Source: Gammaproteobacteria bacterium (lineage in GTDB: Bacteria > Pseudomonadota > Gammaproteobacteria > Ga0077536). Taken from it: a stretch of 64,000 nucleotides of DNA. How positions within the stretch are numbered: the first letter of the stretch is position 1; the number at the start of each line of letters is the position of its first letter. The position numbers were made by a program, and so were the translations under genes. The DNA lies in NCBI GenBank assembly GCA_038116745.1, contig JAYODW010000004.1, positions 50,408-114,407 on the forward strand, in the 5' to 3' direction. Of this stretch, positions 9,520 through 64,000 are shown piece after piece. The notes under the pieces are model-generated. The model was given only the letters and a program-made list of their open reading frames with translations, had not been told where the DNA came from and ran no database searches.

Positions 9520-11124
9520 ATGAGACTTCCATACGCACATACCCTGGCCTGTGCGCTGGGCGCGTTCACTTTAGTGCTGCCGCCTGCCGGTCAGGCCATC
9601 ATCACCATCGGCAGTGACATCGAGCTGGAAGGCTTCGTTCAGGCGCAGAACATCCTGCGCACGCCGAAGTTTGAATCCTCCGAGTTCATCATGCAGCGCA
9701 ACACCGCCCAGCTCGAAGGCAAGTACAACTTTGCGCGTCGTGGTGAGCTGTTCAATCGCTACGACGCGGGGCCACTCGAAGAAGCGACTCTCACCCTCAT
9801 TGGTCGGGGCGTCTACGACAGCATTTACGACGTTCGTTCATCGTATGACGACGCCTATAAAGGCGAGTCAAAGAAAAATATCGGCTACGAGTACAAGCTG
9901 CGGGAAGCCTTCGTCGACCTTCTGCTGCCGCCGTTTTCATTGCGTCTGGGACGTCAGCAGGTGGTGTGGGGTGAGACCGACAATTTCCGCGCGCTCGACG
10001 TCATCAACCCGCTCGATCTCAGCTGGCATTGGGCTCGCGAGTCGTGGGAAGACATCCGTATCCCGCTGTGGATGGCCCGCGGGATCTATGACATCGGCAA
10101 GATCGGACCATTCGAGGAATCTTTTGTGGAAGCGGTCTACATACCGGCCGACTTCAAACGGAACAAGGTGGCTACCGATCCAAGGCGACCCTGGGCATTT
10201 ACCGGCGTGGGGCTGAACGAATCAGCCAACTCGGTGATTATCGATAACCAGCTCTACAACCTGAACGTCATTGCGCGCGATCGCTCTCCGGGGCGCCAGC
10301 TGGAAAACGGCCAGGGTGGCGCGCGCTTTAAGGCCATCTGGGGCAACATCGACTTCAGCCTGAATTATTTTTACGGGTTCTCCGCCGATACCGGCGTGCG
10401 CAATCGCAATGACCTGTCCTGGACCGCAGGCGACACCTATAACGCCGTCATCGACCTGGTTAATCCGCGCTCCCACGTCCTCGGACTGACCGCTAACTAC
10501 TCCGAGGAACGCTACACGCAGGCAGTGTTCCGCCTCGAAACCACGTTCACAACCGGTGTCCCGGTGAAGGTCGCAGCCGACGCTCCAACTTCTGTAGACC
10601 GCAACGGCGATCAGTACGACGAAGCACGCAGGACGGTCGTGATGCTTGCCATTGACCGGCCCACCTGGATCCCGCTGCTGAACAAGACGCGCACCTTCTT
10701 CCTTTCGTCGCAGATCTTCTGGCGACGCTGGATCGACTACAGCAGCTGGTATCGCGGCGTTCCCGGCGTGTGGCAGGCGCGGCTCAACGGTCAGGATGTT
10801 CCCGGCCGCTACATCAGCGAGACGACCGACGAAATTGACCAGAATGAGTTCGTGCTGACCTTCGCCGCGTCGACCGCTTATGGCCCGGCTGGATTGATCA
10901 AGCCGACTTTCGTGTTCGCCATCGACCCACGCTCGACCGGCGCCTACAACCGTTTTCAGCTGGAGTATCTCTACTCCAACCACATCGTGCTGCGCTTACA
11001 GCAGGATCTGTACTGGGAGATCAACGACAACGACCCCGGGCCCTGGGGCCTGGGCGACGTCTGGGGTCACGACACCAGCCAGAGCCGACACGAGACCATC
11101 TTCAGCGTGATCTACCAGTTCTGA
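9520..11124 (+). CDS. DUF1302 family protein (outer-membrane, partner of DUF1329)
   Basis: Signal peptide, 534 aa, Tyr/Trp-rich beta-barrel-like composition. Lies immediately downstream of a DUF1329 gene, the usual pairing. RBS AAAGGA. Confidence 0.7.
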   Translation: MRLPYAHTLACALGAFTLVLPPAGQAIITIGSDIELEGFVQAQNILRTPKFESSEFIMQRNTAQLEGKYNFARRGELFNRYDAGPLEEATLTLIGRGVYDSIYDVRSSYDDAYKGESKKNIGYEYKLREAFVDLLLPPFSLRLGRQQVVWGETDNFRALDVINPLDLSWHWARESWEDIRIPLWMARGIYDIGKIGPFEESFVEAVYIPADFKRNKVATDPRRPWAFTGVGLNESANSVIIDNQLYNLNVIARDRSPGRQLENGQGGARFKAIWGNIDFSLNYFYGFSADTGVRNRNDLSWTAGDTYNAVIDLVNPRSHVLGLTANYSEERYTQAVFRLETTFTTGVPVKVAADAPTSVDRNGDQYDEARRTVVMLAIDRPTWIPLLNKTRTFFLSSQIFWRRWIDYSSWYRGVPGVWQARLNGQDVPGRYISETTDEIDQNEFVLTFAASTAYGPAGLIKPTFVFAIDPRSTGAYNRFQLEYLYSNHIVLRLQQDLYWEINDNDPGPWGLGDVWGHDTSQSRHETIFSVIYQF

Positions 11125-48128: not shown

Positions 48129-49217
48129 TTACTCTCCAAGCTGCCGGTTCACCGCCGGCATCACTTCTTCGGCCATTAATTCCATCGAGCGGCGCGACAG
48201 CTGGACGTCAGCCCAGTCATGCCCGGCATACACCAGCGTGCCGAAAGCACCGACTTCCTCACGCAGGGCGAGGATCTGCTCGGTCACCTGCTCAGGCGTG
48301 CCGCAGATAACCAGAGAGTTCATCACAAACTCGTGGGTCACTTCGGCGTCCGGCATATCGCGGCGATTCTTGAACAGGTCAGGGCGACCGTTGCCGATCA
48401 GTTTCCGCATCAGGCTGCGATAGTAGTTGCCATAAGGACCGTCGGGATCCATGGCATAGGCGCGTGCGGTTTTCTCATCTTCAGCCACGAAAATACTCTT
48501 CGCCACCCGCCACTGCCCGACGTCAGGCTCCCGTCCGCTCTCCGCCCAGCCCTCGAGCAGCTTGTCCCAGTGCGTCCTGACCCAGGCCGGCTGGAGAAAA
48601 TTGGCAGAGATGATCGACCAGCCGTGGCTGGCAGCGTTCGACACCGAGTCGGAATATGGCGACATGCACGCCACTACAATAGGCGGATACGGCTTCTGCA
48701 GCGGTCCCAGAATGGCGCCCTGCCCGATCTCTAGATCCATGGTGCGTCGCGTGGTCACCTCCCAGAACTCGCCCTTGAGGTCGTAGGGGGCCTCGCCGTC
48801 CCAGATTGCCAGCACCTGGGCGATGGCTTCGTGGAACATCGCCTTGCGATCGCGGTCCAGATTACCGAAGACCTCGGCATCAGAGCGCAGCCCGCCAGGA
48901 CTGATCCCGAGAATAAAGCGGCCAGCGAGCATGTGATCGACCATCGCGACCTGAGCGGCAACCGCGGCAGGATGGCTGTTGGGCAGGTTGATAGTGCCGC
49001 TGCCGAGACGGATCTGCTTGGTGTGATAGGCCAGGCTGGCCAGAAAGATCAGGCAGGAGGTGATCGTTTCCGCCTTGTCGGTGACGTGTTCGCCGACAAA
49101 GGCCTCGTGAAAGCCGAGACTGTCAGCAAGCAGGATCGCCGCCCGATCTTCAGCCAGTGTGATGCTGTAGTCGCGCGTGATCGGATGCAGCGGCATGGTG
49201 AAATAACTGAGCTTCAT
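48129..49217 (-). CDS. LLM-class flavin-dependent monooxygenase/oxidoreductase
   Basis: Luciferase-like pattern (FHEAFVGEHV, ICGTPEQVTEQI). Confidence 0.8.
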   Translation of the reverse strand: MKLSYFTMPLHPITRDYSITLAEDRAAILLADSLGFHEAFVGEHVTDKAETITSCLIFLASLAYHTKQIRLGSGTINLPNSHPAAVAAQVAMVDHMLAGRFILGISPGGLRSDAEVFGNLDRDRKAMFHEAIAQVLAIWDGEAPYDLKGEFWEVTTRRTMDLEIGQGAILGPLQKPYPPIVVACMSPYSDSVSNAASHGWSIISANFLQPAWVRTHWDKLLEGWAESGREPDVGQWRVAKSIFVAEDEKTARAYAMDPDGPYGNYYRSLMRKLIGNGRPDLFKNRRDMPDAEVTHEFVMNSLVICGTPEQVTEQILALREEVGAFGTLVYAGHDWADVQLSRRSMELMAEEVMPAVNRQLGE

Positions 49218-51463
49218 GATGTAGTCCCGTGGGAATCGTCAGCGTTGAAAGATGAGTTTTTTCGCGCGCGATACTCGGCCGCGGACAGCGCCGCCTGGTA
49301 GCGCGCATAGGCCGCCTTGCGATCCGGTGGGGCCGCTGCAGCGGCGTCGAAGGTCGGCGCGAGGTCCGGGGGGTAGCAGCCGAGCTTCTGCTCTGAGGCC
49401 CCCATCGGCGCGCGGAACACCAGCTCGCGCACGTTCGTCCGGCGCGCTTCGATAACCTGACCGTTTTCGTCGCTGTCTAGATCCCACCACCATTTCTTCA
49501 GCGGGTTGATACGCCCATTTCCGACCCGGTCGTCGAGCGCTGCAATCCAGCCGCGCGTGAACGGCAGGTGCATCGCGGACCACAGAAAGGGCCGCTCCGC
49601 GAGCACGCCTTCGATGTTCCACGGGCAGGTTTTCATACAGCGCCCGCACATCGAGCCGGCGGCATTGGTAATGCGGTAACGCGCGCATTTTTCGACGTCG
49701 GGCTTCCACATCTCGTAGCCGTTGAACATGATCTTGTCGCCGAAAGGGATCGCCGCACAGGGACATTCGCGCGCGCATTTGCTGCACTTGTTACAGAAAT
49801 CCTGCAGGCCGAAGTCGATCGGTTGATCCACCGCCAACGGCAGGTCGGTGGTGATGATCCCGGACTTGAAACGCGGCCCGACGAACGGGTTCAGCACCAG
49901 CTCGCCGATCCTCGAGAGCTCGCCCAGGCCGGAATTGAGGATCAGCGGAATGTGCAGTACATCCTGGTCCATCACCGAATGCCCGCGTGCGCCATAGCCG
50001 AGACGCCGGATCTGGGAGCCGACCACGCCGCCGAGCAGCTGCGCGCGCATGTAGGCGCGCATCGATTGCGCGCCCGAGATCCAGTCGTCACCGCTCGCGC
50101 CCTCCATGGTTTCGTAACCCTGGTCGATCAGGATCACGATGGCATAGCGGTGATACGGCTCGATGGGAGAACCGTCGGTGTCGTGGGAGTACCAGGCATA
50201 GTCGGGCACGCGACAGATCCCGACCATGTCCGCCCCCAGGTAATACAGCGCCGCCTTGACGAGTTCTGCATTGCGCTTCGGATCGTCATAGCCCGGCGTC
50301 CGCTCCGGCGCCGTCTCACCGTATTGCAGCGGCACCATCCCGCCCAGCACCGGCACCATGGCGTGGCCGAACGGGGATTTGGTGATCATGCGAAAACCTT
50401 TCAGCTCACGCTGCGCCTTCTCTCCCAGGTCGCCCATGGCGGCGCGGATAAACATATCGTGGCGCTTGGGCACCCGCGGCACCGCCTGTTCATCCACCAG
50501 GGTGGTGGGCTCGGCCACTCGCTTCACGCGCTCCATGGGATACCGCCCGAGGTGATAGTCGCGCCCGCGGTATGGCTCGCCGGCATATCCGGGGCGCGCG
50601 CCGCCCCAGCCCAGCCACCATTTGAATCCGCGCGCCGATCCACTGCCGGCGGCCAGCGGACCGGCATCCTCCAGCGCAAGCGTGGTGCTCACCGCGACCA
50701 GTCCGAACCGCCGGCCGACAAAAGGGTTCCCGGATCCGCCGTCACGTTGTTCAGCAAGTCCGGCCGCCAGCGCCAGCGCGTCAAGATCAAGCTCAGCCGC
50801 GGTCACGGTATGCAGCCGCGCGTCGAAACCCAGCATGCGCAGGTAGTTGGCCATGACCGCTCCGACCTCGGCACCGCGCAGTGCGGCGCGGGCGGCCTGC
50901 ATGTCGAGGATCCAGTCGGCGCCGGGCTCATCGGCGCGCGGGTCGCGCGGGTACTCAGTCAGGATGACCAGCGCGAACGGATGCTCGCAGCGCTCCTCTT
51001 CAACCGCGGACCGCGCCCAGGCTTCGCGTCCCTCGGCCACCACGTTCTCGGCCATCCGGTTGTCCGCCGCGCCTGGGGCGTAGGTGCGCGCCTGCTCCTC
51101 GGCCAGCGACACATTGGTGACGGGGACAGTGAGACGGGCGGCCTCCGGGACCCGACAGGTGGCTGCCATACTCGCATCCAGGTAATAGCAACCGCCCTGC
51201 AGGTGACGGCTGCGCTCCAGCGGCGAGTCCGGGATGGGCGCCACTGCGGGCGCCACCGGTCCGTTGCGCATCCGGTCCATGAGATCGATGTAGTCGCGCA
51301 GCACGTTGCGCAGGGAGCCGGGGCGCTGCGGCGCCTCCAGCTCGAAGGGAGCGGCAGGCGACCCCGTCGGCGGCACAGCCGCACCCGCGGCGCGTGGAAG
51401 TCGCTCCAAAGGAAAGCTACCGGCCCAGGCCGGACGTCGACGATGGGAGAACAGACGAACCAT
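49214..51463 (-). CDS. reductive dehalogenase homolog (cytoplasmic, NpRdhA/BhbA-like 'catabolic' type), cobalamin + 2x[4Fe-4S]
   Basis: C-terminal CNKCSKCARECP (CxxCxxCxxxCP) and CARYRITNAAGSMCGRCMKTCP ferredoxin-type motifs. About 750 aa with no TAT signal. The 4-nt overlap with the downstream LLM gene suggests an operon. Confidence 0.7.
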   Translation of the reverse strand: MVRLFSHRRRPAWAGSFPLERLPRAAGAAVPPTGSPAAPFELEAPQRPGSLRNVLRDYIDLMDRMRNGPVAPAVAPIPDSPLERSRHLQGGCYYLDASMAATCRVPEAARLTVPVTNVSLAEEQARTYAPGAADNRMAENVVAEGREAWARSAVEEERCEHPFALVILTEYPRDPRADEPGADWILDMQAARAALRGAEVGAVMANYLRMLGFDARLHTVTAAELDLDALALAAGLAEQRDGGSGNPFVGRRFGLVAVSTTLALEDAGPLAAGSGSARGFKWWLGWGGARPGYAGEPYRGRDYHLGRYPMERVKRVAEPTTLVDEQAVPRVPKRHDMFIRAAMGDLGEKAQRELKGFRMITKSPFGHAMVPVLGGMVPLQYGETAPERTPGYDDPKRNAELVKAALYYLGADMVGICRVPDYAWYSHDTDGSPIEPYHRYAIVILIDQGYETMEGASGDDWISGAQSMRAYMRAQLLGGVVGSQIRRLGYGARGHSVMDQDVLHIPLILNSGLGELSRIGELVLNPFVGPRFKSGIITTDLPLAVDQPIDFGLQDFCNKCSKCARECPCAAIPFGDKIMFNGYEMWKPDVEKCARYRITNAAGSMCGRCMKTCPWNIEGVLAERPFLWSAMHLPFTRGWIAALDDRVGNGRINPLKKWWWDLDSDENGQVIEARRTNVRELVFRAPMGASEQKLGCYPPDLAPTFDAAAAAPPDRKAAYARYQAALSAAEYRARKNSSFNADDSHGTTS

Positions 51464-51492: not shown

Positions 51493-53100
51493 TCAGCTAC
51501 CTGGCGTCATCACCAGGTCAATGACAGCGGCGGTACCGGCCGCAAATGCGCTTTCGAGCGCGCCTTCGAATTTGCCCGTGTGCTCCACCCGGGCGCCGAA
51601 GAGCCCGAAGGTCCGCGCCATGGCCGCGAAATCGGGGTTGGTCAACTCGGTGCCCAGAGGACGTCCGGGATAATGACGGTCCTGGTGCATTTCAATCGTG
51701 CCGTAGCGGGCGTTATTGAATACCAGGATTAGCGGCCTCGCGCCGTACTTAGCCGCAGTGGCCAGCTCCATCCCCGTCATGAGCATACCGCCGTCGCCGA
51801 CGCAGCCGATCACCTGACGCTCGGGCAGCGTGAGCGCGGCGCCTATGGCGCTGGGCACACCGTGCCCCATCGCGCCGTTAACCGGACCGAGCAGACGACC
51901 AGGTCGACGGTACTGGCGGTAGCGGTGCGGCCAGACGGTGAAATTGCCGGCGTCGATCGCCACTACCGCGTCGTCGCGAAGATGGCTGTTCAGAATCTGC
52001 ATGACTGCATGCGGATCGAGCGGTTCCCTGCCGCGCTCGCGCTCGAGGCTGGCGCGATAGGCTGCATTAAGACGCTGGCACCAGGGCACGGTGTCCGCGC
52101 GCACGCCGGGTGCGGCTGCGGCCAGCGCTGCGCTCGTCGCTTCGATATCCGCCACCACCGCAATCTGTGGGGAATAATTCACACTGAGCTCGCGCGCCTG
52201 GGGGTAGACGTGGATCAGCGTGCGCTCGCGCCCGTCATTGAACAGGGTGTACCCCAGCGTCGTCGGCTCGTCGAGACGCGCGCCCAGCACCAAAACACAA
52301 TCTGCCTCGGCTGCAAGCTCTGTCGCCTCGGGATGGGCGTTGTAGCCCAGGTAGCCGGCATAGCAAGGATGCCGGTTGTCGAAACAATCCTGGCGACGGA
52401 AGGCCGTCATCACCGGAATCACATGAGCCTCGGCAAAACGCACCAGGTCGGCGACGGCGGCGTCGGTCCAGGTGCCGCCGCCGGCAATGATCAGCGGCCG
52501 CTCAGCCTGCGCCAGCGCCGCACGGATGCGACCGAGGTCGTCCGCGCCCGGGCCAGCCGCAGCCGCCGGGGCGACTCGTGGACCCGCCTGCGTGGTTGCT
52601 TCAGTCAGCACATCTTCAGGTAATGCCAGCGCCACAGGCCCCGGACGCCCGCTTTCCGCAATGCGAAACGCGCGGGCAAAAGCCGCGCCCAGGTCGTCGG
52701 CCTGCTCGATCTGCTCAACGTGCTTGACCAGCTGCGGCAGCAAGCTGGTGTAGTCCAGCTCCTGAAAGGCCTCGCGACCTAAATGGCGGCGCGACACCTG
52801 GCCGATGCCGATCACCAGCGGGATCGAAGCCTGCTGCGCGACATGCAGAGCTATCGTCGCATTGGTTGCACCCGGGCCACGGGTGACAAAGACGACGCCA
52901 GCCCGCTGCCGCAGCCGTGCATTCGCGCAGGCCATGAAGGCGGCGCCGCTTTCGTGCCGACATGAGATGTAGCGGATCTGATCCTGCGCGCCGTAAAGCC
53001 CGTCCAGTACCGCGAGATAGCTTTCGCCGGGCACGCCGAAGACGGTATCAACCCCCTGCTCCAGCAACGCCGCGACGACCTGTTCACCGCCGCTGCTCAT
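51493..53100 (-). CDS. thiamine pyrophosphate-dependent enzyme (acetolactate synthase/benzoylformate decarboxylase family)
   Basis: TPP_enzyme N/M/C architecture and GDGG TPP-binding motif (GCVGDGGMLMTG). Confidence 0.8.
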   Translation of the reverse strand: MSSGGEQVVAALLEQGVDTVFGVPGESYLAVLDGLYGAQDQIRYISCRHESGAAFMACANARLRQRAGVVFVTRGPGATNATIALHVAQQASIPLVIGIGQVSRRHLGREAFQELDYTSLLPQLVKHVEQIEQADDLGAAFARAFRIAESGRPGPVALALPEDVLTEATTQAGPRVAPAAAAGPGADDLGRIRAALAQAERPLIIAGGGTWTDAAVADLVRFAEAHVIPVMTAFRRQDCFDNRHPCYAGYLGYNAHPEATELAAEADCVLVLGARLDEPTTLGYTLFNDGRERTLIHVYPQARELSVNYSPQIAVVADIEATSAALAAAAPGVRADTVPWCQRLNAAYRASLERERGREPLDPHAVMQILNSHLRDDAVVAIDAGNFTVWPHRYRQYRRPGRLLGPVNGAMGHGVPSAIGAALTLPERQVIGCVGDGGMLMTGMELATAAKYGARPLILVFNNARYGTIEMHQDRHYPGRPLGTELTNPDFAAMARTFGLFGARVEHTGKFEGALESAFAAGTAAVIDLVMTPGS

Positions 53101-53137: not shown

Positions 53138-54109
53138 TCACGGTGCCAGAATGGGAATGCTGAGTTCAGCGCGATCCTCGAGATGCAGATGCGCCGCAGC
53201 GGCATCGGCAAGCGCAAAACGTTTGACCGGATGCGGCCGCAGAACGCCTGCATCCAGCGCCTCGAACACGCGCCCGGCGCTCAGCTCGAGCTCGGCGCGT
53301 TCGGCAACGTAATCGTTAAGACGCGGACGCGTCAGATAGAGCGATCCCAGGCGCGACAGTCCCAGCACATCGTAGGGGTCCGGCTTTCCGGAAGCGTTGC
53401 CGTAGGCAACCATGAGGCCGCGGCGACGCAGGCATTCCAGTGATTTCTCGAACGTGTCTTTCCCGACCGAGTCGTAGACCACATCCACGCCGCGTCCGCC
53501 CGTCATCGCCTTCACCTGCTCCACGAAGTCGTCCTGCTGATGCAGCAACACCTGCTCCGCTCCGGCCTCCCGCGCCGCGGCAAACTTGCTCTCGCTGCCG
53601 ACGGTGGCGATGACCCGAGCGCCCAGGTGTCGCGCCCACTGCACCATGAGCAGACCCGTGCCGCCGACCGCCGCATGGACAATGACGGTTTCATCCGGCT
53701 GCACGGCATGCAGCCGGAACAGCAGGTATTCGGCCGTCATAGCGCGGGTCAGGGTCGCGGCCACAACATCAGGATCAACGCCGTCCGGAATGCGGACCAC
53801 CTGATCCGCGCGGATCACCCGCCTTTCACAGTAGGCCCTGGCGACTGAACCGTAGGCCACCGTATCACCCTCAGCCAGCTCACTTACCCCTGGACCAAGT
53901 GCTTCAACCACCCCCACCGCCTGGTCGCCGATCACGGCCGGCAGGGGAATGGGATAAATGCCACGACGGAAATAGGTGTCGATGTAGTTGACCCCGATCC
54001 CCGTGTGACGGATGAGCACTTCGCCCGGGCCCGGGCTGCCCAGATCGATTTCGGACAGGGTCAGCTGTTCAACGCCGCCATAGGCGTGAATGACAATAGC
54101 GGGGGTCAC
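53138..54109 (-). CDS. qor: NADPH:quinone oxidoreductase (MDR/zinc-ADH superfamily)
   Basis: Qor pattern (MTPAIVIHAYGG..., AAVGGTGLLMVQWA). Confidence 0.85.
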   Translation of the reverse strand: MTPAIVIHAYGGVEQLTLSEIDLGSPGPGEVLIRHTGIGVNYIDTYFRRGIYPIPLPAVIGDQAVGVVEALGPGVSELAEGDTVAYGSVARAYCERRVIRADQVVRIPDGVDPDVVAATLTRAMTAEYLLFRLHAVQPDETVIVHAAVGGTGLLMVQWARHLGARVIATVGSESKFAAAREAGAEQVLLHQQDDFVEQVKAMTGGRGVDVVYDSVGKDTFEKSLECLRRRGLMVAYGNASGKPDPYDVLGLSRLGSLYLTRPRLNDYVAERAELELSAGRVFEALDAGVLRPHPVKRFALADAAAAHLHLEDRAELSIPILAP

Positions 54110-54177
54110 GCGTGTTCTCCGGGTGTGTGGTCAGCCGAGTATACCCGCGCGGCATGGGGCCTGATTCCCTGCAATGC
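53969..54177. repeat. direct repeat copy 1 (about 209 bp; qor 5' end + upstream region)
   Basis: About 97% identical to 55711..55919 (4-5 mismatches by eye). Confidence 0.8.
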
Positions 54178-54692
54178 CAACGCCAACAACCGTTGGGGTA
54201 CACCTCATTCGAACGGAAATCAGACGTTCACAACACGTAAATCATCTCTAGCAGCCCAGCTGCCTAGATCTTCCGAACCCATAACCAAGCCGTTCGAGAC
54301 TGGTTATAGCGGTGAGAGCTGCTCGCCGCATGAGGTCGACATCCATATCTCATGGACATTTTTCTACTACAGACCGGCTAGCTTCAGAGGGCGCGCCGCC
54401 GGACAGGCCAGTAATTGCCCAAAATGATGCGTTTCCTTTCCCGGTTCTTTCGTCCGCAGGGGGGATGGTCGAAATAGGACCTCTGTCTTGCGCCTTGCGC
54501 ATATCCGCTGAGAGGCCATCCGAAGCTTGCGAAACCTCTGCCGGACCGCCCCAGCCTCAGACATCGAAACAGAACAGGTAGGGAAGGCATCGCGGTTAGC
54601 TATTCAAAAAGCGGGGTTGTCCTTCTCAGCTTCTATCTGCGGAAGCTGGCTCACCCCCCCTAAGGGCGGGCTGTCTCAACTGCTCAGATAGC

Positions 54693-55382
54693 TTAACCGG
54701 CCAATCGCAGAGCGTAGTAGAAATGATGCGAGAAAAGCCCAAGATTCGATTCCTGAAACAGCCGCTTCCAGGGTTTCCGGGACACCGGCCTGTAAATTCT
54801 AATTAATTCGAATCCCAGTCTCCGGGACAGTTCATAGATCATAGACTCAGTCATCCATAGGACATGTTCACAGCTAGCAGTGAACATTCGCTTCCTAACG
54901 ACCCGGAAAACGTTTGTTAAACAAAAAGGGTTAGGGGTCGCGATCAGCAAAATTCCGTCGAGCTCAAGATGTCGTCTCGCAAACGCAAACAATGAGTCCA
55001 GGGAATGCACGTGCTCTATCAAATCTCCCATAAAGACGACTTGGAACTGCCTGCCCAGAAACCGATCCGATGTCGCGTCACATAGCGCCACATCAAAGCC
55101 GTCCTTCTTCAGCGCATCAACCATAGACTGAACAATATCGATCCCAAGGCAGTCCGAAGCGACTTGAACGATCTTCCTGTGCTTCCACTTGGTTGACCTA
55201 AAGCGAGGCAAATCGTGGGCCGCCGCTCCGATATCTAGGACCGACTTGCCTTCAAACAAGTGGAGTAACCCACTGAAGCCACCGGCAAGGGGTTGTGTCA
55301 AGGACTGCAGATGCCTCTGAATATCTTCGAGGACAGAAGTGTCTTTCGGATCGTCTGTTCGTGCGGTCCAGTCAATAGTCAT
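54693..55382 (-). CDS. class I SAM-dependent methyltransferase
   Basis: Motif I (VLDIGAAAHDL). GC markedly lower than flanking genes. Confidence 0.7.
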   Translation of the reverse strand: MTIDWTARTDDPKDTSVLEDIQRHLQSLTQPLAGGFSGLLHLFEGKSVLDIGAAAHDLPRFRSTKWKHRKIVQVASDCLGIDIVQSMVDALKKDGFDVALCDATSDRFLGRQFQVVFMGDLIEHVHSLDSLFAFARRHLELDGILLIATPNPFCLTNVFRVVRKRMFTASCEHVLWMTESMIYELSRRLGFELIRIYRPVSRKPWKRLFQESNLGLFSHHFYYALRLAG

Positions 55383-55578: not shown

Positions 55579-55710
55579 ATGACAAGCTGCTCAATAGAAG
55601 CGTTATAGCGACTGAGGGGACGTTGCCCCCCGCTGTAGGCTCACATAACGAAATCGGGCACCTCAAGGAGCTGGTCACAGGCGGTGGGTAACAGGATAGA
55701 GCCTTGGACA

Positions 55711-55919
55711 GAAATAGGTGTCGATGTAGTTCACCCCGATCCCCGTGTGACGAATGAGCACTTCACCCGGGCCCGGGCTGCCCAGATCGATTTCGGACAG
55801 GGTCAGCTGTTCAACGCCGCCATAGGCGTGAATGACAATAGCGGGGGTCACGCGTGTTCTCCGGGTGTGTGGTCAGCCGAGTATACCCGCGCGGCAAGGG
55901 GCCTGATTCCCTACAATGC
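55711..55919. repeat. direct repeat copy 2 (about 209 bp), containing a 47-codon qor 5' fragment (55711..55851, minus)
   Basis: Duplicate of 53969..54177. Encodes MTPAIVIHAYGGVEQLTLSEIDLGSPGPGEVLIRHTGIGVNYIDTYF with no continuation. Confidence 0.8.
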
Positions 55920-55948
55920 GGGCGCCAGCAACTGCCGGAGAGCCATCC

Positions 55949-56539: not shown

Positions 56540-56990
56540 GGCCCTCAGGCAAGCGCCGGCATCACCTGAGCGACGATCAGCTCGCGTGGGCGCATCAGGT
56601 CCGCATGTCTCACATCGCCGGTAGCGATCTGCGCAGGCAGATAAGTCGCGCCCGCCTGCTCAGGCTACGACAGCAGCTCATCAGCGATCCTTTGCGGCGA
56701 AACGCACACCGTCACGCCGATCTCGCGAGCGGTTTCAAAGTTGTACAGCGGACCGAGCCGGATACGGCTGGTCGCCTGAGTGACTGCAGCAAAAACACTG
56801 AAGGACAGGATCCCACTCCAAGCGGCGTGCCGTGATGTTCCGCCAGGTGGTAACCCCGATAGCCGCCGGCCTCGGCAGCCTGGATGACTTCAATACGGTC
56901 AGCCAGGGGGCGCGCGTGCCCACGGCTTCTAATCGAAGTGGTCAAAAATTCCAAACTGCACGCGTTCTCATCCTTGCTGTCGGGTGTCTT
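56540..56990 (-). pseudogene. remnant of an LLM-family monooxygenase gene (internal deletion/frameshifts)
   Basis: Minus-strand frames encode an N-terminal LLM motif (...AGGYRGYHLAEHHGTPLGV) and a C-terminal LLM motif (...VCVSPQRIADELL, compare ICGTPEQVTEQIL in 48129..49217) only about 350 bp apart. Confidence 0.45.
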
Positions 56991-58060
56991 CAGGCGCCCG
57001 TCGGACGCTTCCAGATACCGCGCTCGACCATCAGCGCAATCTGCCGCTCCGTCACCTCCCGCGCGTATTCCGCGTGGTCCATCGGCGCGCGCTCGGCATA
57101 CAGGTTTTTCGGGTAGATGGGCCGTTCGTAGATCAGCTGGATCATCTCCGTACGCAGATCCTTCATCCAGTTGGTCCACTTGGAATGCGTTCGATGGTGA
57201 CGCAACGCCTCGATGTTGACCGGACCGCAGACGCTGGTTGAGACCCCGCCATAATCCTGCCGGCCGACTACCTGACCGCGATAATCCACCAGCATGGAGT
57301 GCCCGCCAAAGGTATCGATGGGCGCTTCTGAATCGGCATCGAGATAATAGGTGCCGAGGTTCGGCGCCAGCACGTAGAAGTTGTTGTCGAGCGCACGGGC
57401 GCGGGTCTGGATCTCGAAGTAATCATTCGACGCGGCGGGGTGCGGGATCGATGCGCGGTACACCAGCTCCGCACCGTTCATTGCCAGACCGCGCGCGTGT
57501 TCCGGGTAGGACCCCTCGTTAGCCATCATGATCCCGAGCCGGCCGATAGGCGTGTCGACTACCGGCCAGAACGCATCGAGGCTGCGCCCGTAGCGTTCTA
57601 TCCACCAGTCAAACACGTCATGCGGGCACATCGAGTGCTCGACCGGATACAGGGGCGCAACCTTGTAGTGCTGCAGGATGACCGCCCCATCAGGATCGAT
57701 GATGAAGCCGACGTTGAAGAAACGCTCGGGCCAGTCGGGGTGTCGCGCCTTGGCCTGCGCCATGAGGTAGACCCCGTACTCGCGCGCGATCGCGCCCAGT
57801 GCGTCGGTTTCGGGGCCCGGGATATCGATCGCACAGGTACGCGCGTAGATCGCGTGGTCCAGATCCAGTACTTCGTCGTTGAACGCCTGCAGCGCGCCCT
57901 CGGGTAATGCGATTAGGCGCACCGGCAGGTCCAGGCCCGCAAGCCAGCAGGCGGCTTTAATCATGTGCCGCTGGTGCTCGATGTTGCGCAGGATGTCCGT
58001 CCGCTCGCGGATCCCCCACACGGTGGGGACCAGGCCAACGGCGTTATACGGTTCGATCAT
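56990..58060 (-). CDS. carbon-nitrogen hydrolase, aliphatic amidase/formamidase (AmiE/AmiF)-like, catalytic Cys replaced by Ala
   Basis: Collinear with AmiE: Glu (LIALPEG) and Lys (HYKVAPLYP) conserved. The nucleophile position IICDDGNYPE is MMANEGSYPE here. Confidence 0.75.
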   Translation of the reverse strand: MIEPYNAVGLVPTVWGIRERTDILRNIEHQRHMIKAACWLAGLDLPVRLIALPEGALQAFNDEVLDLDHAIYARTCAIDIPGPETDALGAIAREYGVYLMAQAKARHPDWPERFFNVGFIIDPDGAVILQHYKVAPLYPVEHSMCPHDVFDWWIERYGRSLDAFWPVVDTPIGRLGIMMANEGSYPEHARGLAMNGAELVYRASIPHPAASNDYFEIQTRARALDNNFYVLAPNLGTYYLDADSEAPIDTFGGHSMLVDYRGQVVGRQDYGGVSTSVCGPVNIEALRHHRTHSKWTNWMKDLRTEMIQLIYERPIYPKNLYAERAPMDHAEYAREVTERQIALMVERGIWKRPTGA

Positions 58061-58242
58061 CGTGAGATTCTCCGACTGCCGCGTGAGGTCGCAGCCCCTG
58101 GGGATGATAGCGCCCTGCCCGCCCGCGACGCGGACGCTGCCGGCGCGGTTTCGCTGAACGGCGCGATCTGCGAATCTAGCGCGCCCCGCTCATGAATCAT
58201 TACCTCGCGGAACCCGGTCGCCGGCTGCCCAAAGGAAAGCGC

Positions 58243-59301
58243 ATGCGTCAGTTCGAATTTTCCATGCTGCCCTGGAACGTTGTCTTCGGTGCCGGCGTTC
58301 TGGCGTCCTTGCCGCAACGCCTTGATCAGATGCGCCTGCAGCGCGCCCTGGTGCTCTCGACGCCAGAACAGCAAGGAGATGCGGAGCGTGTACAGGCCCT
58401 GCTCGGCCAGCGCGCAGTCGGCTGCTTCTGTGACGCACGCATGCATGTTCCGGTCGAGGTGGCCAGCGCCGCGGCAGCAGAGGCAGCACGGCTTGAGGCT
58501 GATTGCTCGGTCTCCGTCGGTGGCGGTTCCACGACCGGGCTCGGGAAGGCGCTGGCGCTGAACAGCAGCCTGCCGCTGATCGCCATTCCGACCACCTACG
58601 CCGGCTCCGAGATGACCACAATCTGGGGCATGACCGAAGATGGACGCAAGCGCACCGGCCGCGATCCCGCCGTTCTCCCCCGGCTGACGCTCTATGACGC
58701 CGAACTGACCCTCAGCCTGCCGCCCGCAATCGCTGGTCCCAGCGGCATGAATGCCCTCGCGCAGGCCACGATCAACGCGCAGGACCCCCGTACCAATCCC
58801 ATCGTCATGACGCTGGCGCGGGAGGCTATCGCCGCCATCGCCAGCGGCCTGCCGCGGGTCATGCGCACGCCGGAAGATATTGATGCCCGCGAACAGCTGC
58901 TCTACGGCGCGGCCCTCGCCGGCGCCTCGCTCGGTGCCGGTGTAACCAGCCTGCATCACCGTCTCTGCCACACGCTCGGCGGCAGCTTCAATACACCTCA
59001 TGCGGAGACCCACACTATCCTGCTGCCTTACACGGTCGCCTACGCCAGTGACGCTGTGCCTGAGCTCATGGCAGCCATCGCTGCTGCCCTCGGCAGCACG
59101 AGCGCGGCCGGCGGGATCTATGATCTTGCCGCGAGCCTGGGCCTGCCGACCTCACTGACCTCAATCGGCATCAGAACGACCGACCTGGCGCGGATCGCGG
59201 ATCTCGCGACGGAGGCAGAGGTCAGCAATCCGCGTCCGGTCACTCGTGACGGTGTGCTTGCGCTGCTGCAGCAGGCCGTCGCCGGTCAACGCCCTGATTG
59301 A
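58243..59301 (+). CDS. maleylacetate reductase (iron-containing alcohol dehydrogenase family)
   Basis: Fe-ADH fold matching the maleylacetate reductase pattern (FGAGVLASLP...). Start ATG 58243 has an AAAGGAAAG RBS. Confidence 0.75.
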   Translation: MRQFEFSMLPWNVVFGAGVLASLPQRLDQMRLQRALVLSTPEQQGDAERVQALLGQRAVGCFCDARMHVPVEVASAAAAEAARLEADCSVSVGGGSTTGLGKALALNSSLPLIAIPTTYAGSEMTTIWGMTEDGRKRTGRDPAVLPRLTLYDAELTLSLPPAIAGPSGMNALAQATINAQDPRTNPIVMTLAREAIAAIASGLPRVMRTPEDIDAREQLLYGAALAGASLGAGVTSLHHRLCHTLGGSFNTPHAETHTILLPYTVAYASDAVPELMAAIAAALGSTSAAGGIYDLAASLGLPTSLTSIGIRTTDLARIADLATEAEVSNPRPVTRDGVLALLQQAVAGQRPD

Positions 59302-59328
59302 GCGCCCGACTCACCTGGAGAACACACC

Positions 59329-59958
59329 ATGATCGATCTCTACACCTGGTCCACGCCGAATGGCCGCAAGGTGTCCATCATGCTCGAGGAGCTGGGCATC
59401 GAATACGCGGTGCACAGCGTCAATATCAGCCAGGACGAGCAGTTCACGCCGGAATTTCTCGCCATCAGCCCGAACAACAAAATCCCGGCGATTGTGGACC
59501 GCGACAACGAACTGTCGCTGATGGAGTCGGGGGTCATTCTCATGTACCTCGCAGACAAACACGGCCGCTTCCTGCCGCCTGCAGGTGAAGCGCACTGGCG
59601 CACCATCGAGTGGCTGATGTGGCAGATGGGCGGCGCCGGACCCATGCTCGGTCAGGCGCATCACTTCGTGCACTTCAATGCGGACAAATCCGAGTACGCC
59701 AAAGAGCGCTACCGCAACGAGGCGGATCGACTCTACGGCGTGCTCGATCGCCGGCTGGCGACACAGGCCTACATGGCGGGCGCGGACTACACTATCGCGG
59801 ACATGGCGACCTGGCCCTGGATTGCGCGCTTCCAGTGGCAGGGCGTCGATTTTCCGGCCTACCCGAACGTGCTGCGCTGGTATCGCGAACTGGCTGACCG
59901 ACCGGCCGTACAGCGCGGCTATCGCGTTCCGAACGACGCTGAGATCCCATTTCCATGA
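59329..59958 (+). CDS. glutathione S-transferase (YghU/YfcG-like)
   Basis: GST N- and C-domains. 209 aa. Confidence 0.85.
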   Translation: MIDLYTWSTPNGRKVSIMLEELGIEYAVHSVNISQDEQFTPEFLAISPNNKIPAIVDRDNELSLMESGVILMYLADKHGRFLPPAGEAHWRTIEWLMWQMGGAGPMLGQAHHFVHFNADKSEYAKERYRNEADRLYGVLDRRLATQAYMAGADYTIADMATWPWIARFQWQGVDFPAYPNVLRWYRELADRPAVQRGYRVPNDAEIPFP

Positions 59959-59980
59959 CGCACCGATAACGGGCAGGCAG

Positions 59981-60295
59981 GTGGAGATCGCGACCTACGA
60001 AATCACGCTGCGTCACGCTGGACTCGAACCGATCCGCTTTGCCGCGCCCGCCGATCGCTCCATCGTCAAATCCGCCCGTGCAGCGGGTTACGCCCTGACC
60101 ACCGGCTGTCTACAGGGACGCTGCGCCATCTGCCTTTCCCGCCTGCTCGCCGGGGAGCTGAAAGTGATCCGACGACCGTCGCGCCACGCCGTGGGTGACC
60201 CGCTCAAGCGCGCTGATGGCTGCGTTCTGCCGTGTTCACTGGCGCCTGACTCCGACGTTGAACTGGAGACGCTCAGCCCCTGGACGTCATGCTGA
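59981..60295 (+). CDS. [2Fe-2S] ferredoxin (oxygenase electron-transfer component)
   Basis: GTG 59981 (VEIATYEITL...). Cys pattern C-x4-C-x2-C...C (GCLQGRCAICLS...GCVLPC). The track ORF 59678..60295 is the same frame running open across the GST gene. Confidence 0.6.
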   Translation: MEIATYEITLRHAGLEPIRFAAPADRSIVKSARAAGYALTTGCLQGRCAICLSRLLAGELKVIRRPSRHAVGDPLKRADGCVLPCSLAPDSDVELETLSPWTSC

Positions 60296-60506
60296 GCGCG
60301 CTGACCGGCGCAAGTTCAGCTGCGGCAGAAACGGACGCATTTGCCCGTCTTTCAATCCGCGGCACGAGCCATGTATCTTCTCCGCGTCGGGGGGGCAGCG
60401 TCACACAAGGAAGGCCTCCGCCTGCGATCGGGCGGCGCTCGACATGACAGACAGGACGCCGGGGCATGTCCGGCGTGAGATCATCATCTCAAGGGAGTCA
60501 TCCGTA

Positions 60507-61625
60507 GTGAGCAGCAAATTTCTGGAAGACGCCTGGTACGCCGCCGCCTGGAGCGACGAGGTCGGAACCGGGCTTTTTGAGCGCACGATTATCGATCGGT
60601 CTTTCGTTTTCTACCGAGACCCGGCCGGCGTCGCGCAGGCGTTCGACAACGCCTGTCCGCACCGCTCCGCGCCGCTCAGCATGGGAAAGCTGCACGGCGA
60701 TGTGATCGAGTGCCCCTATCACGGCTTACGTTTTGACCGCGACGGTCAGTGCGTTCTCAACCCTCACGGCAACCAGAAAATCCCATCACGTGCCCGAGTG
60801 CGAAAATATCCCCTGCTCGAGCGCCACGCCATGCTGTGGCTATGGCCCGGCAACTCCGAGGCGGCGGACCCGGACAAGATCCCGGATTTCTCGTGCCACA
60901 CCGATGACCGCTTTCCAACCGTCAAAGGCGTCATCGAAATGCATGGCTATTACGAGCTCATCACGGACAACCTGATGGATCTGACCCACGTCGAGTTCGT
61001 GCACGAGGGGATCCTCGGTTCCGACGCAATCAAGCGCGGTGAACACCAGGTCCTGCAGACTGGTACCACCATCTGGTCAAACCGCTGGTGCCCCGACGGG
61101 CTCGCGCCGCCGGCCTGGGATGCCATGTTCGACCACTACGGCAAGCCCGTCGACCACTGGCTCTACATGCGCTGGGACGCGCCGGCCCACATGCTGCTCG
61201 ACGTCGGCATCACCCCGACCGGGGAGTCCCGCGACGCCGGGATCTGGATGTACGGGACAGATATCCTGACCCCGCGGGACAGCGGCAGCACGTACTACTT
61301 CTGGGGCTGCTCGCGCTCCTATGACATTGATAACCCAGCTGCCGGCGAAGCCTGGGAGCGTGCGATTGACGGTGCTTTCGTGCAGCAGGACAAGCCCATG
61401 ATCGAAGCGCAGCAGCGACTGATCCGTCAGCGCGGCGGCGAAGACATCGACGACGTTGACTCTATTGCACTGCAAACCGACTCCGGCCCGGTGCGCTGCC
61501 GACTGGCGCTGCGCAAACTTCTCGCCGCCGAAGGTGCCGCGCGGATCCCGGACCCACGGAACCCGGCGCTGAGCCGCCTGCTCGATGACGCCCGGCGCGA
61601 AACACGCATCGAACCGGTCGTTTGA
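60507..61625 (+). CDS. Rieske non-haem iron oxygenase alpha subunit, VanA/phthalate family
   Basis: Rieske CPHRSAPLSMGKLHGDVIECPYHGLRF. VanA-like N-terminus (FLEDAWYAAAWSDEV). GTG 60507 lies 9 nt after AAGGGAG. 372 aa. Confidence 0.85.
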   Translation: MSSKFLEDAWYAAAWSDEVGTGLFERTIIDRSFVFYRDPAGVAQAFDNACPHRSAPLSMGKLHGDVIECPYHGLRFDRDGQCVLNPHGNQKIPSRARVRKYPLLERHAMLWLWPGNSEAADPDKIPDFSCHTDDRFPTVKGVIEMHGYYELITDNLMDLTHVEFVHEGILGSDAIKRGEHQVLQTGTTIWSNRWCPDGLAPPAWDAMFDHYGKPVDHWLYMRWDAPAHMLLDVGITPTGESRDAGIWMYGTDILTPRDSGSTYYFWGCSRSYDIDNPAAGEAWERAIDGAFVQQDKPMIEAQQRLIRQRGGEDIDDVDSIALQTDSGPVRCRLALRKLLAAEGAARIPDPRNPALSRLLDDARRETRIEPVV

Positions 61626-61697
61626 CCCGGCCGCGTCGCGCCACATAACGCTGACCCACCCTGACCGGCCGCCACCGATGCGGCCCTGGAGGACCGC

Positions 61698-62195
61698 ATG
61701 ACGACACCCACCCGCTTTGCCACCACCGAGGACTTCGACAAAGGAGGCGTCGAGATCATCGGCGACGATGCCGCACCTCGCTACCTGTTCAGCAACATGT
61801 TTGAGGTAGCCAGCAAGTCGCCCCCCTGGGAGCGTGTGGTCATCGCCAGGAACCTTGAATTCACCGTCGAATGCGCGCGCGCCGAAGGCAGCTCCCCGTG
61901 GTACGTCTGCGCCCACGACGAAACCGTGCTGTGCATGCAGGGTGCGGTGGAGATCAAGTTTCTGAAACCGGAAAACGATGCGCTGCCGGAAGCCGATACC
62001 GCTGGCGCAGTGCGCCTTGAGGCTGAGCCGACGGGACAGGCCATGGGCTACGCCCGGTTGAAACGCGGCCATATGGCGCTGCTGCCGGCCGGCGCGGCCT
62101 ATCGCATCACCGCGACGGGCGTCGGCGTGCTGCTGCTGCAGTCGCTGCTCGGCGCCGAGTCACGCGAGCGATGGGCCACCATCTGCCAGCACTGA
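61698..62195 (+). CDS. cupin domain protein
   Basis: 165 aa with a cupin motif 2-like segment (GHMALLPAGAAYRI). Confidence 0.4.
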   Translation: MTTPTRFATTEDFDKGGVEIIGDDAAPRYLFSNMFEVASKSPPWERVVIARNLEFTVECARAEGSSPWYVCAHDETVLCMQGAVEIKFLKPENDALPEADTAGAVRLEAEPTGQAMGYARLKRGHMALLPAGAAYRITATGVGVLLLQSLLGAESRERWATICQH

Positions 62196-62233
62196 ACCGC
62201 GTCAGACACAAACACTAAGCGGGAGCCCGCAGC

Positions 62234-63250
62234 ATGACGACAGCAAACCCCACCACCACCCCGACACTGACCATCAACGCGACCGACCACAGCGCCCGGC
62301 TGGACGAGCGTTACGGCTACCAGGTTTTCAGCATCGGCAGCTATACCTTCCAGCGCGATGAATACTTCGTCCGCGTGAGCTATCCGCGCGGCACCTATGT
62401 CGCCGACGTTGGCGCTTTTCTGCGCGCCATGATGCGCGACGTCGCGTGGGGCTTTTTCTACGGCTGGGTCAACTTCGACGACGTCTTCGGCACCGTCAAC
62501 CACTACGGCTCGGTCGATGTGTTTGTCGGCGCCTATAACGCGGGCTACAAGGCCGCCGGCACTGATTTCACCGAACGTTTCGACGCCAACAAGCTGCTCG
62601 CGTGCTTCCGCGCGCTGCTCTCCGACTGGACCAACGCCGGCTACGACCCATTCGCGGCACCGCTCGAAACCGGCTCGCCCTATGGCTCGAAGAACGGCAA
62701 CAACGATGACGCGGTCAACTTTCAGCGCGAGCTGGCCGAGCGCTTCGTCGGCCTGCCCGGTGATTCGGAGCTGCGCACTGATGCGCGCGGCTTCCCCATC
62801 AACCGTCAGTTCGCGGACGTTGAGCAGGACGAGCCGGAAGTGCACTGCGAGCCTGGTTTCGAGGGCGAGCTGTCCGCGTTCAGCCTGTTTGCCTACCTGT
62901 CGCGCTCGCCGGTGACCTGGAACCCATCGATCGTCTCGGTGGTCGGCGAAAGCGCCTACTGCCCGACCTCTGAGGAACACATCCTGCCCATCCTGCACGG
63001 CAACGATCGGGTGGAGTGGTTTCTCCAGCTGACCGATGAAATCACCTGGCAGATCGCCGACAAGAACACCGCCGCGCCGCGCGCCATCGTGACGATGAAA
63101 GCCGGTGATGTGTGCGCCATGCCGGCCGACATTTCTCACCGCGGCTACTCGCCGAAGCGCTCCATGCTGCTGGTATGGGAAAACATGACGCCGGGACTCG
63201 AGCAGCGCTACGCCAGCGGCGAGCTCGCGCCGACCGCAGCTGAGTTCTGA
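62234..63250 (+). CDS. hypothetical protein with C-terminal cupin-like metal site
   Basis: 338 aa. Possible His/Glu/His ligands (ILHGNDRVEWF...MPADISHRGYS). N-terminal half has no recognisable family. Confidence 0.4.
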   Translation: MTTANPTTTPTLTINATDHSARLDERYGYQVFSIGSYTFQRDEYFVRVSYPRGTYVADVGAFLRAMMRDVAWGFFYGWVNFDDVFGTVNHYGSVDVFVGAYNAGYKAAGTDFTERFDANKLLACFRALLSDWTNAGYDPFAAPLETGSPYGSKNGNNDDAVNFQRELAERFVGLPGDSELRTDARGFPINRQFADVEQDEPEVHCEPGFEGELSAFSLFAYLSRSPVTWNPSIVSVVGESAYCPTSEEHILPILHGNDRVEWFLQLTDEITWQIADKNTAAPRAIVTMKAGDVCAMPADISHRGYSPKRSMLLVWENMTPGLEQRYASGELAPTAAEF

Positions 63251-63311: not shown

Positions 63312-64000
63312 ATGGCCCTGCAACCCCAACATGTTGACCTTCAGTCCCTGCCGCGTGACCTGTTTATCGGCGGCGAATGGGTTGAAGGCCTGGCCGGTGC
63401 CCGCATTGCGGTGCATAACCCGTTTGATAACCAGGAGATCCTGAGTATCGCCGAGGCGCGCGCGGAGGATGTCGACCGCGCGGTTGCCGCTGCGCGGGCC
63501 GCGTTTCCCGCCTGGTCCGCCATGCCAGCCGCCGAGCGTGCCCGCCTGCTGCACAAACTGGTTGAACGCATGGAAGCCGGCTTCGACGAGCTGGCGGAGC
63601 TTGAGGCTATCGATACCGGACACCCGATCCGCGACACGCGCTTTCTTGACGTACCGCGCACGCTGCTCAACTTCCGCTATTTCGCCGGCATGGCCGACAA
63701 AATCGACGGGCGCCAGGTGCCGGTCGAACCCGGCTTTCTGAACGTGGTGAAACGCCATCCGGTCGGCGTGGTCGGCCAGATCGTGCCGTGGAACTTCCCG
63801 CTCATGTTCTGCAGCTGGAAACTTGGCCCGGCGCTGGCCGCGGGCAACACGGTGGTCATGAAACCCTCCGAGATCACGCCGCTGTCGACTCTGCGCCTCG
63901 CACAGATGATGCAGGAGGTCGGTTTTCCCCATGGCGTGGTCAACATTGTGCCAGGCTACGGCCATCTCGCCGGCCAACGGCTGGCTGAGCACCCGGACGT
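63312..64000 (+). CDS. aldehyde dehydrogenase family protein, 3' end truncated by window edge
   Basis: MALQPQHVDLQSLPRDLFIGGEWVEG...VVGQIVPWNFPLMF...MKPSEITPLS, typical of ALDH. The frame is open to the window end. The ORF track omits it because it has no stop. Confidence 0.85.
   Translation, partial: MALQPQHVDLQSLPRDLFIGGEWVEGLAGARIAVHNPFDNQEILSIAEARAEDVDRAVAAARAAFPAWSAMPAAERARLLHKLVERMEAGFDELAELEAIDTGHPIRDTRFLDVPRTLLNFRYFAGMADKIDGRQVPVEPGFLNVVKRHPVGVVGQIVPWNFPLMFCSWKLGPALAAGNTVVMKPSEITPLSTLRLAQMMQEVGFPHGVVNIVPGYGHLAGQRLAEHPD

Follow-up and report, generated by a model that had tools for sequence, protein, structure and literature searches.

Enzymes of the nitrilase superfamily are recognised by a Glu-Lys-Cys triad that is treated as both defining and universal, and annotation pipelines transfer hydrolase names on the strength of it. 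In the amidase AmiE and the formamidase AmiF, homohexamers that hydrolyse short-chain amides or formamide, a second glutamate (E141/E142) extends this triad to a tetrad in which Cys166 is the acyl-enzyme nucleophile. Here we describe a gene that contradicts the rule. It lies on a 64,000-nucleotide stretch of contig JAYODW010000004.1 from a Gammaproteobacteria bacterium (the window, to which coordinates refer unless a locus is named) and encodes a nitrilase-superfamily protein in which the catalytic cysteine is replaced by alanine. The protein belongs to a clade, hereafter the Ala clade, that is old and horizontally widespread, that falls in the superfamily branch nearest to the aliphatic amidases and formamidases, and in which the change from thiol to alanine has been kept by selection. 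Proteins of this clade cannot form the acyl-thioenzyme that defines the superfamily. Family counts given below refer to the best 120 of 2381 matches recovered in a search of 5.8 billion proteins. The gene and its active-site codons are as follows.

56990–58060, minus strand: intact CN_hydrolase (nitrilase-superfamily) gene of the Ala clade, with Ala180 in the motif MMANEGSYPE, assigned from the open reading frame (ORF), Pfam PF00795, an AlphaFold2 model, homologues and the ratio of non-synonymous to synonymous substitution rates (dN/dS)
57899–57901, minus strand: Glu54 (LPEG), the catalytic glutamate, kept and invariant in the 120 family members
57662–57664, minus strand: Lys133 (HYKVAP), the catalytic lysine, kept and invariant in the family and in an 80-sequence subfamily alignment
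57638–57640, minus strand: Glu141 (PVEH), the second glutamate of the amidase tetrad, kept according to the alignments
57521–57523, minus strand: codon 180, GCT, alanine at the position of the catalytic cysteine (Cys166 of AmiE and AmiF), placed by the translation IMMANEG, HMMER alignments and a gapless alignment to a Cys-bearing relative

The nucleophile position was located by three alignments. HMMER pairs LGIMMANEGSYPE of the query with LAVCICHDGMFPE of AmiF in this region, and KISLIICDDGNYPE of AmiE falls in the same columns of the subfamily profile alignment. When IGKIGCVVCMDGSFPE from a Cys-bearing relative of 50% identity is aligned, without gaps, to IGRLGIMMANEGSYPE from the query, CVVCMDGSFPE is set against IMMANEGSYPE. 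Ala180 is therefore at the position of the nucleophilic cysteine, as the initial annotation had proposed. That annotation was also right that the catalytic glutamate and lysine are kept, since Glu54 and Lys133 align with the catalytic residues of AmiF and AmiE and are invariant; with Glu141 in the place of the second glutamate, the nucleophile is the member of both the triad and the tetrad that is missing. The protein contains the four cysteines counted earlier (residues 38, 76, 145 and 278), none of which lies at the nucleophile position, and each of them varies within the family. Cys76 is confined to the Ala clade, where 117 of 120 members have it and the others have isoleucine or glycine. 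Cys145, four residues past the second glutamate and within a subfamily-specific insertion, is found in 110/120 (otherwise threonine, valine or serine), and the equivalent position is threonine in other Cys-less lineages. His142, directly after Glu141, is present in 119/120 members of the Ala clade, against about 2% of Cys-bearing relatives. A metal site made up of the invariant histidines (H29, H69, H107, H131, H142, H147 and H329) was considered and dropped, His147 being part of a P-H-D motif common to most of the Cys-bearing relatives shown.

The ORF has 356 codons and an ATG start, with GGAG at 58070–58073 (minus strand) 9 nt 5' of the ATG, and its 356-residue product is a member of the superfamily by both sequence and fold. 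It matches Pfam PF00795 at 92.1 bits (E 4.6e-26), well above the gathering threshold of 23.2. The monomeric AlphaFold2 model, built on 80 homologues, has a pLDDT of 95.5 and a pTM of 0.94, and is predicted to adopt the four-layer alpha-beta-beta-alpha sandwich: the top 50 Foldseek hits in the PDB are all nitrilase-superfamily structures (TM 0.6–0.87), with AmiF and AmiE best at E 1e-25 and about 21% identity. AmiF (5g3o, 2e2k, 2dyu) and AmiE (2uxy) are also the nearest solved proteins by sequence, at E 1e-13 to 1e-10 for the single sequence, improving to 8e-42 for AmiF and 4e-38 for AmiE with the subfamily profile. The earlier label 'AmiE/AmiF-like' thus holds at the level of superfamily and branch, where the alignment is collinear, and fails at the level of the enzymes themselves: the protein scores 56.4 bits against a cut-off of 406 for the AmiF equivalog and 50.3 bits against 427 for the AmiE equivalog (NCBIfam NF009802 and NF009803 were the two models used). 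No curated NCBIfam family was matched, and a Pfam scan of the 356 residues found no fused regulatory or DNA-binding domain. We conclude that the Ala-clade protein is a member of the superfamily structurally and evolutionarily, and not mechanistically. Public records for the 90% cluster of the query (P0001, P0273, P0275) carry the Joint Genome Institute (JGI) names 'beta-ureidopropionase' or 'predicted amidohydrolase', and a further public label is 'nitrilase-related carbon-nitrogen hydrolase'. Because the nucleophile position is alanine, the JGI names cannot describe a canonical activity, and they are likely to be propagated misannotations.

The alanine is a fixed character of the family. The best 120 homologues are 69–99% identical to the query (119 of them at least 70%) and span Pseudomonadota, Acidimicrobiia, Binataceae, Methylomirabilota/Rokubacteria and Acidobacteriota. 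When species-representative genomes were scanned, 459 relatives were found. The initial annotation had suggested that conservation of the alanine in orthologues be checked, and it is conserved in 120/120 by alignment, with the motif G[IMV]MMANEGSYPE in 119. At 87 loci the site is encoded by GCC (40), GCG (25), GCA (13) and GCT (9), that is, by all four alanine codons, so that the codon varies under a constant amino acid. Between the window gene and its nearest relatives dN/dS is 0.05–0.07, at a dS of 1.4–1.75, which is saturated. As many as 124 of the 356 positions are at least 99% invariant, including E54, K133, E141, A180, N181, E182, Y185, P186, E187 and the whole A-N-E-G-S-Y-P-E segment, and the invariant residues specific to the Ala clade include N61, C76, H107, H142, W152, M179 and N227. 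A change from cysteine to alanine (TGY to GCN) takes two base substitutions, and the identical protein, with the same neighbours, is found on a 130-kb NCBI contig of a metagenome-assembled genome (MAG) and in two independent Logan assemblies. Loss of the nucleophile in this gene is ancient and selected, a trait of the family rather than damage, and the protein probably has a chemical or binding role not yet described for the nitrilase fold.

A sensitive search of 1.84 billion cluster representatives defined a larger subfamily of CN hydrolases of about 355 residues, which share the insertion S-x-x-P-H-D-x-x-D-x-W...Y-G after the second glutamate and most of which keep the cysteine. In a neighbour-joining tree the Ala clade is monophyletic with a Cys-bearing sister. 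Elsewhere in the subfamily the nucleophile is replaced by glycine (P0130, P0132), by alanine outside the Ala clade (P0133, P0210, P0214, P0220) or by serine (P0134, P0177, P0247), and the four nearest Cys-less relatives (P0130, P0132, P0133 and P0134) retain Glu-Lys-Glu. These lineages are on separate branches, and the cysteine has been lost several times independently, the exact number being uncertain since the tree is crude. Some of these variants have neighbours of their own. In locus L091 (80–4860; also in L092 and L093) a UbiD-family decarboxylase gene is followed after 9 bp by the glycine variant P0132 (AGTVGVEGSFPE), which is separated by 1.2 kb from a second, Cys-bearing subfamily member (GTLICAEGSYPE); the serine variant P0134 is near a molybdopterin hydroxylase (L094), and the alanine variant P0133 adjoins an intact luciferase-like monooxygenase (LLM; L088).

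The gene neighbourhoods of the Ala clade were analysed in 85 related loci, in which ORFs were called, neighbours clustered and recurrent ones annotated. Counts are for the 73 loci in which the Ala-clade ORF was recovered.

Aldehyde dehydrogenase (ALDH) anywhere in the locus: 26/73 loci
ALDH as the next gene on the same strand: 22/73 loci, with gaps of 10–52 bp in 19 of the 22
TrpB2-type pyridoxal phosphate (PLP) enzyme: 22/73 loci, in 19 within two genes of the Ala-clade gene
Major facilitator superfamily (MFS) transporter, mostly of the aromatic-acid:H+ type: 18/73 loci
TonB-dependent receptor: 15/73 loci
Any oxygenase or oxidase (P450, LLM, SMOA with flavin reductase, BBE/6-HDNO-like): 20/73 loci
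Amidase-signature (AS-family) amidase: 6/73 loci
CWE-type nitrilase and aldoxime dehydratase directly after the pair of Ala-clade and ALDH genes: 3/73 loci (L032–L034)
Pyruvate/indolepyruvate-type 2-keto-acid decarboxylase: 2/73 loci

The next-gene ALDHs are orthologous to one another (58–99% identity, median 75%), and among solved proteins they come closest to salicylaldehyde, 4-hydroxybenzaldehyde, vanillin and benzaldehyde dehydrogenases. The typical marine operon has genes for a TonB-dependent receptor and an MFS transporter on one strand and, divergent from them, the Ala-clade, ALDH and TrpB2 genes in that order; in soil the typical arrangement is TrpB2 followed by the Ala-clade gene and, in some cases, an amidase gene. 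The TrpB2-type neighbour matches solved TrpB2 at E 2e-132 and keeps both the GSHKPN motif of the PLP lysine and the TETGAGQWG motif of the indole-activating glutamate. Together with SMOA and short-chain dehydrogenase/reductase (SDR) modules in L038 and L041, it gives the context an indole flavour. The three loci L032, L033 and L034, from Lysobacterales/Gammaproteobacteria MAGs, hold at about 6000–10660 the Ala-clade gene, the ALDH, the CWE-type nitrilase and a haem aldoxime dehydratase (PF13816). L032 and L033 have an AS-family amidase gene upstream of these, and L033 contains a Cys-bearing paralogue of the subfamily in addition; together the genes make up a compact aldoxime-nitrile-amide-aldehyde cluster. 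Intact LLMs occur near the homologues in 9/73 loci; an LLM as a conserved partner was rejected, these proteins being non-orthologous (the remnant in the window is 33% identical to the LLM of L006).

The Cys-bearing sister family was sampled in 80 metagenome loci from soil (L095–L174; 65–97% identity among them). The sister protein (for example L033, 11750–12829) is 50% identical to the Ala clade over its full length, is ungapped around the active site and has the same insertion and length, and some loci of the two families share SMOA-type monooxygenase and SDR neighbours. The sister family differs in keeping the cysteine, found in all 71 ORFs in which the motif was recovered, mostly as GCVICMEGSFPE, and in its partners. 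Its operon runs from an SDR through a fused styrene/indole-type monooxygenase-flavin reductase (574 aa) to the Cys-bearing gene, a nitrilase-family protein (372 aa) and an isochorismatase-like hydrolase. The nitrilase adjoins the Cys-bearing gene in 42/72 loci; no more than 4 loci contain an ALDH, which is 37% identical to that of the Ala clade and hence not its orthologue, and a single locus contains TrpB2. From these contrasting neighbourhoods it follows that the link to the ALDH appears together with the loss of the cysteine and belongs to the Cys-less clade. The sister operon itself, as in L100 (787–6437), where the fusion is StyA2B-like, is strongly conserved and apparently undescribed, and plausibly serves the catabolism of indole or nitriles; in many cases it has a second SMOA gene divergent to it.

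What might such a protein do? Taken together, the loss of the thiol, the retention of the acid-base and oxyanion residues, the exchange of a nitrilase partner for an aromatic ALDH and the indole context make a catalytic role the most economical explanation. We tentatively favour a thiol-independent enzyme whose target would be a C=N or carbinolamine-type bond, or else a cyanohydrin, and whose product would be an aromatic aldehyde. The Glu54/Lys133/Glu141 site would then serve in acid-base catalysis, with a substrate that is less oxidised than an amide by one level. Glu54 might activate water or deprotonate a substrate hydroxyl, and Lys133 and Glu141 might give the departing nitrogen a proton or stabilise it. 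The bond broken could belong to a cyclic imine, aldimine or oxime, to a carbinolamine, or else to a cyanohydrin; the compound would be aromatic and probably derived from indole, and the aldehyde would be oxidised to the acid by the co-transcribed benzaldehyde-type ALDH. The Ala clade would thus cleave first and oxidise second, whereas the SDR and the amide and nitrile hydrolases of the Cys-bearing sister fit oxidation followed by amide hydrolysis. A thiol would be of no use for such chemistry, and the aldehyde released would capture it as a thiohemiacetal.

Several observations weigh against this proposal. Cys-to-Ala mutants of nitrilase-superfamily enzymes are inactive substrate traps (5ny7 and 4izv are deposited examples), and many imines and cyanohydrins decay spontaneously, so that the need for an enzyme is not obvious. 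The neighbourhoods are heterogeneous, with no ALDH within 6 kb in 47/73 loci and none of the listed partner enzymes in 23/73, and the same is true of the copy in the window. A comparison of the independent Cys-less lineages identified no compensating catalytic residue that they have in common, and no characterised member of the Ala clade or of the wider subfamily of about 355 residues was found in the literature. Full-text searches for Cys-less or pseudo-nitrilases, aldoxime clusters and indole-monooxygenase clusters likewise returned no description of a natural Cys-less clade in the superfamily. It is no better than possible that the Ala clade is the first nitrilase-fold enzyme family that works without a catalytic cysteine. 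It would then be a Glu/Lys/Glu acid-base catalyst acting on indole-derived or other aromatic nitrogen compounds, either on a cyclic imine or carbinolamine, which it would open, or on an oxime or cyanohydrin, which it would split, and the aldehyde would go to a dedicated ALDH.

The main rival reading is that the protein is a non-catalytic pseudoenzyme, in which an amide or nitrile pocket is kept without turnover and which serves as a ligand-binding, sequestering or scaffolding subunit, perhaps in a hetero-oligomer with a Cys-bearing paralogue or with pathway enzymes. We consider this doubtful, though a serious candidate. Pseudoenzymes are classically recognised by a missing nucleophile, and amidases engineered from Cys to Ala bind their substrate but do not turn it over (PDB 5ny7, 4izv). 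Nitrilase-superfamily proteins are obligate oligomers, the nucleophile has gone to alanine, glycine or serine on separate branches of the subfamily tree, and in two loci (L033 and L091) a Cys-less gene is clustered with a Cys-bearing paralogue of the subfamily. Against this, such a paralogue lies within 6 kb in only 1/73 Ala-clade loci, which led us to reject a fixed hetero-partner; invariant Glu54, Lys133 and Glu141 at a dN/dS of 0.05–0.07 are unlike the relaxed active sites typical of pseudoenzymes; no regulatory or DNA-binding domain is fused; and the gene sits in an enzyme-like operon position, between transporters and ALDH. A lost catalytic residue in a conserved gene, which the Ala clade displays, would be expected equally of a neofunctionalised enzyme. 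The initial annotation's 'pseudo-enzyme or binding protein' is a possible reading, and a neofunctionalised enzyme is at least as likely given the invariant Glu-Lys-Glu, the strong constraint and the conserved ALDH pairing. That annotation had also offered a gene inactivated by point mutation, and it is true that decay and rearrangement are seen nearby (the LLM pseudogene, and a low-GC insertion flanked by a 247-nt duplication). The intact reading frame, alanine in 120/120 close homologues with synonymous turnover among four codons, the low dN/dS, the two substitutions needed and the identical protein in independent assemblies refute recent inactivation, a nascent pseudogene or a consensus or sequencing error at the codon, to which we attach a negligible chance.

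Two further catalytic alternatives were weighed. A hydroxynitrile lyase on the nitrilase fold, considered separately from the favoured enzyme, would use the nitrile-binding site, which it has kept, with Glu54 as the base to split an aromatic cyanohydrin, formed by alpha-hydroxylation of an arylacetonitrile, into an aromatic aldehyde and HCN. The aldehyde would go to the ALDH, and the cyanide to a PLP beta-replacement enzyme, nitrilase or amidase. Several folds, of hydrolases and others, have given rise to hydroxynitrile lyases, a benzaldehyde-type ALDH fits the product of mandelonitrile-type substrates, variable monooxygenases (P450, LLM, SMOA) adjoin, a CWE-type nitrilase and an aldoxime dehydratase stand directly beside the gene pair in L032–L034, and AS-family amidases occur in 6 loci. 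We nevertheless regard it as unlikely, since cyanohydrins dissociate spontaneously at the pH of seawater, cyanide handling is without direct evidence, and the aldoxime dehydratase is found in only 3 loci. The TrpB-like neighbour is an unlikely cyanide-fixing enzyme, as it looks like a standard indole-using TrpB2, and its indole-activating glutamate motif points to indole rather than to cyanide capture. A canonical amidase or nitrilase with a nucleophile moved to Cys76, Cys145 or a serine from a different loop is less likely still. Both cysteines are widespread in the family (117/120 and 110/120), Cys145 is only four residues from the second glutamate and Cys76 is specific to the clade; a catalytic nucleophile should be invariant, and a relocated one is improbable because neither of them is, with threonine at position 145 in the other Cys-less lineages.

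The window derives from an uncultured gammaproteobacterial MAG. Its copy of the gene, which shows no decay, differs in its surroundings from the typical operons: no ALDH or TrpB2 orthologue is found near it. A weak ALDH match lies at 63357–63992. Around the gene the following were noted.

56545–56975 (approximate), minus strand: LLM remnant just downstream of the CN_hydrolase gene, recovered by three-frame translation and PF00296
58061–58191: divergent intergenic region of 131 bp between the CN_hydrolase gene and a maleylacetate-reductase-like gene, delimited from the sequence
58192–63250, plus strand: hydroquinone ring-cleavage operon, divergent to the CN_hydrolase gene

A consensus scan of the intergenic region found neither a sigma-70-like promoter nor a terminator. 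The operon encodes a maleylacetate-reductase-like iron-containing alcohol dehydrogenase, a glutathione S-transferase, a Rieske/VanA_C oxygenase, a small PnpC-like ORF and a PnpD large subunit (PF18191), the last two making up a hydroquinone dioxygenase, and the same arrangement is found in two Logan assemblies. The LLM pseudogene reported earlier is indeed present: stitched across frames, it matches PF00296 positions 2–71 (E 3.8e-10) and consists of the N-terminal approximately 70 codons and a C-terminal tail in two frames, with frameshifts, stop codons and a large internal deletion. In L006, the closest genome relative, an intact LLM gene that is not orthologous to the remnant lies directly downstream of the homologue.

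Other features of the window were also recorded. A 247-nt direct repeat of 92% identity (53944–54190 and 55686–55932) duplicates the 5' end and upstream region of a quinone-oxidoreductase gene (53138–54109, minus strand) and looks like the scar of an insertion or duplication; it brackets a methyltransferase gene (54693–55382, minus strand) with a GC content of 54.7% against about 63%, whose product is the sole member of its 90% cluster. A 749-residue protein (49214–51463, minus strand) belongs to a 90% cluster whose members JGI names 'reductive dehalogenase', a name that is unverified, with no Pfam match at E 1e-5; it is flanked by an intact LLM (48129–49217), an alpha/beta hydrolase, a glutathione S-transferase and a thiamine diphosphate enzyme (51493–53100). 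A megablast search of PLSDB gave no match that would indicate a plasmid origin.

The fold and ancestry of the Ala clade are ordinary; what is out of the ordinary is the fixed loss of a defining residue together with a new conserved partner. Either the nitrilase fold supports an unrecognised chemistry, or bacteria keep a widespread non-catalytic nitrilase-like protein in catabolic operons, and either answer would change the annotation of Ala-clade genes. Such an answer might also bring to light a step so far overlooked in how aromatic or indole-type nitrogen compounds are turned over in sea and soil. If the favoured route of cleavage followed by oxidation is true, many marine Porticoccaceae, Halieaceae and Cellvibrionales would use it, as would many Binataceae, Acidimicrobiia and Rokubacteria of soil. 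The question is testable, as a cultured carrier exists (Luteithermobacter gelatinilyticus, CP040517, locus L001) and the partner ALDH provides a ready coupled assay.

Among known systems the Ala clade is closest to AmiF (H. pylori 2dyu/2e2k, B. cereus 5g3o) and AmiE (P. aeruginosa 2uxy, G. pallidus 2plq) of superfamily branch 2, with which it shares the fold, a similar length, a collinear alignment and the conserved Glu, Lys and second Glu. It differs from them in sequence (about 21% identity), in the replacement of Cys166 by alanine, in an insertion of about 15 residues after the second glutamate and in its genomic partners. The same structural position has been changed to alanine or serine in engineered mutants that bind substrate without hydrolysing it (Nesterenkonia amidase C145A, 5ny7 and 4izv; MtCPA C158S, 5h8k; yeast Nit2 C169S, 4hgd). 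Those proteins were made in the laboratory from active enzymes, whereas the alanine of the Ala clade is natural, ancient and selected, and is accompanied by further invariant residues specific to the clade. The trypanosomatid AdoMetDC prozyme, a dead paralogue that partners an active enzyme, resembles the Ala clade in having lost a key residue while remaining a conserved paralogue of an oligomeric enzyme, and a Cys-bearing paralogue is occasionally clustered with the Ala-clade gene. In contrast to the prozyme, however, a Cys-bearing paralogue is adjacent in 1/73 Ala-clade loci, the other catalytic residues are invariant, and the partner is an ALDH rather than an enzyme of the nitrilase family.

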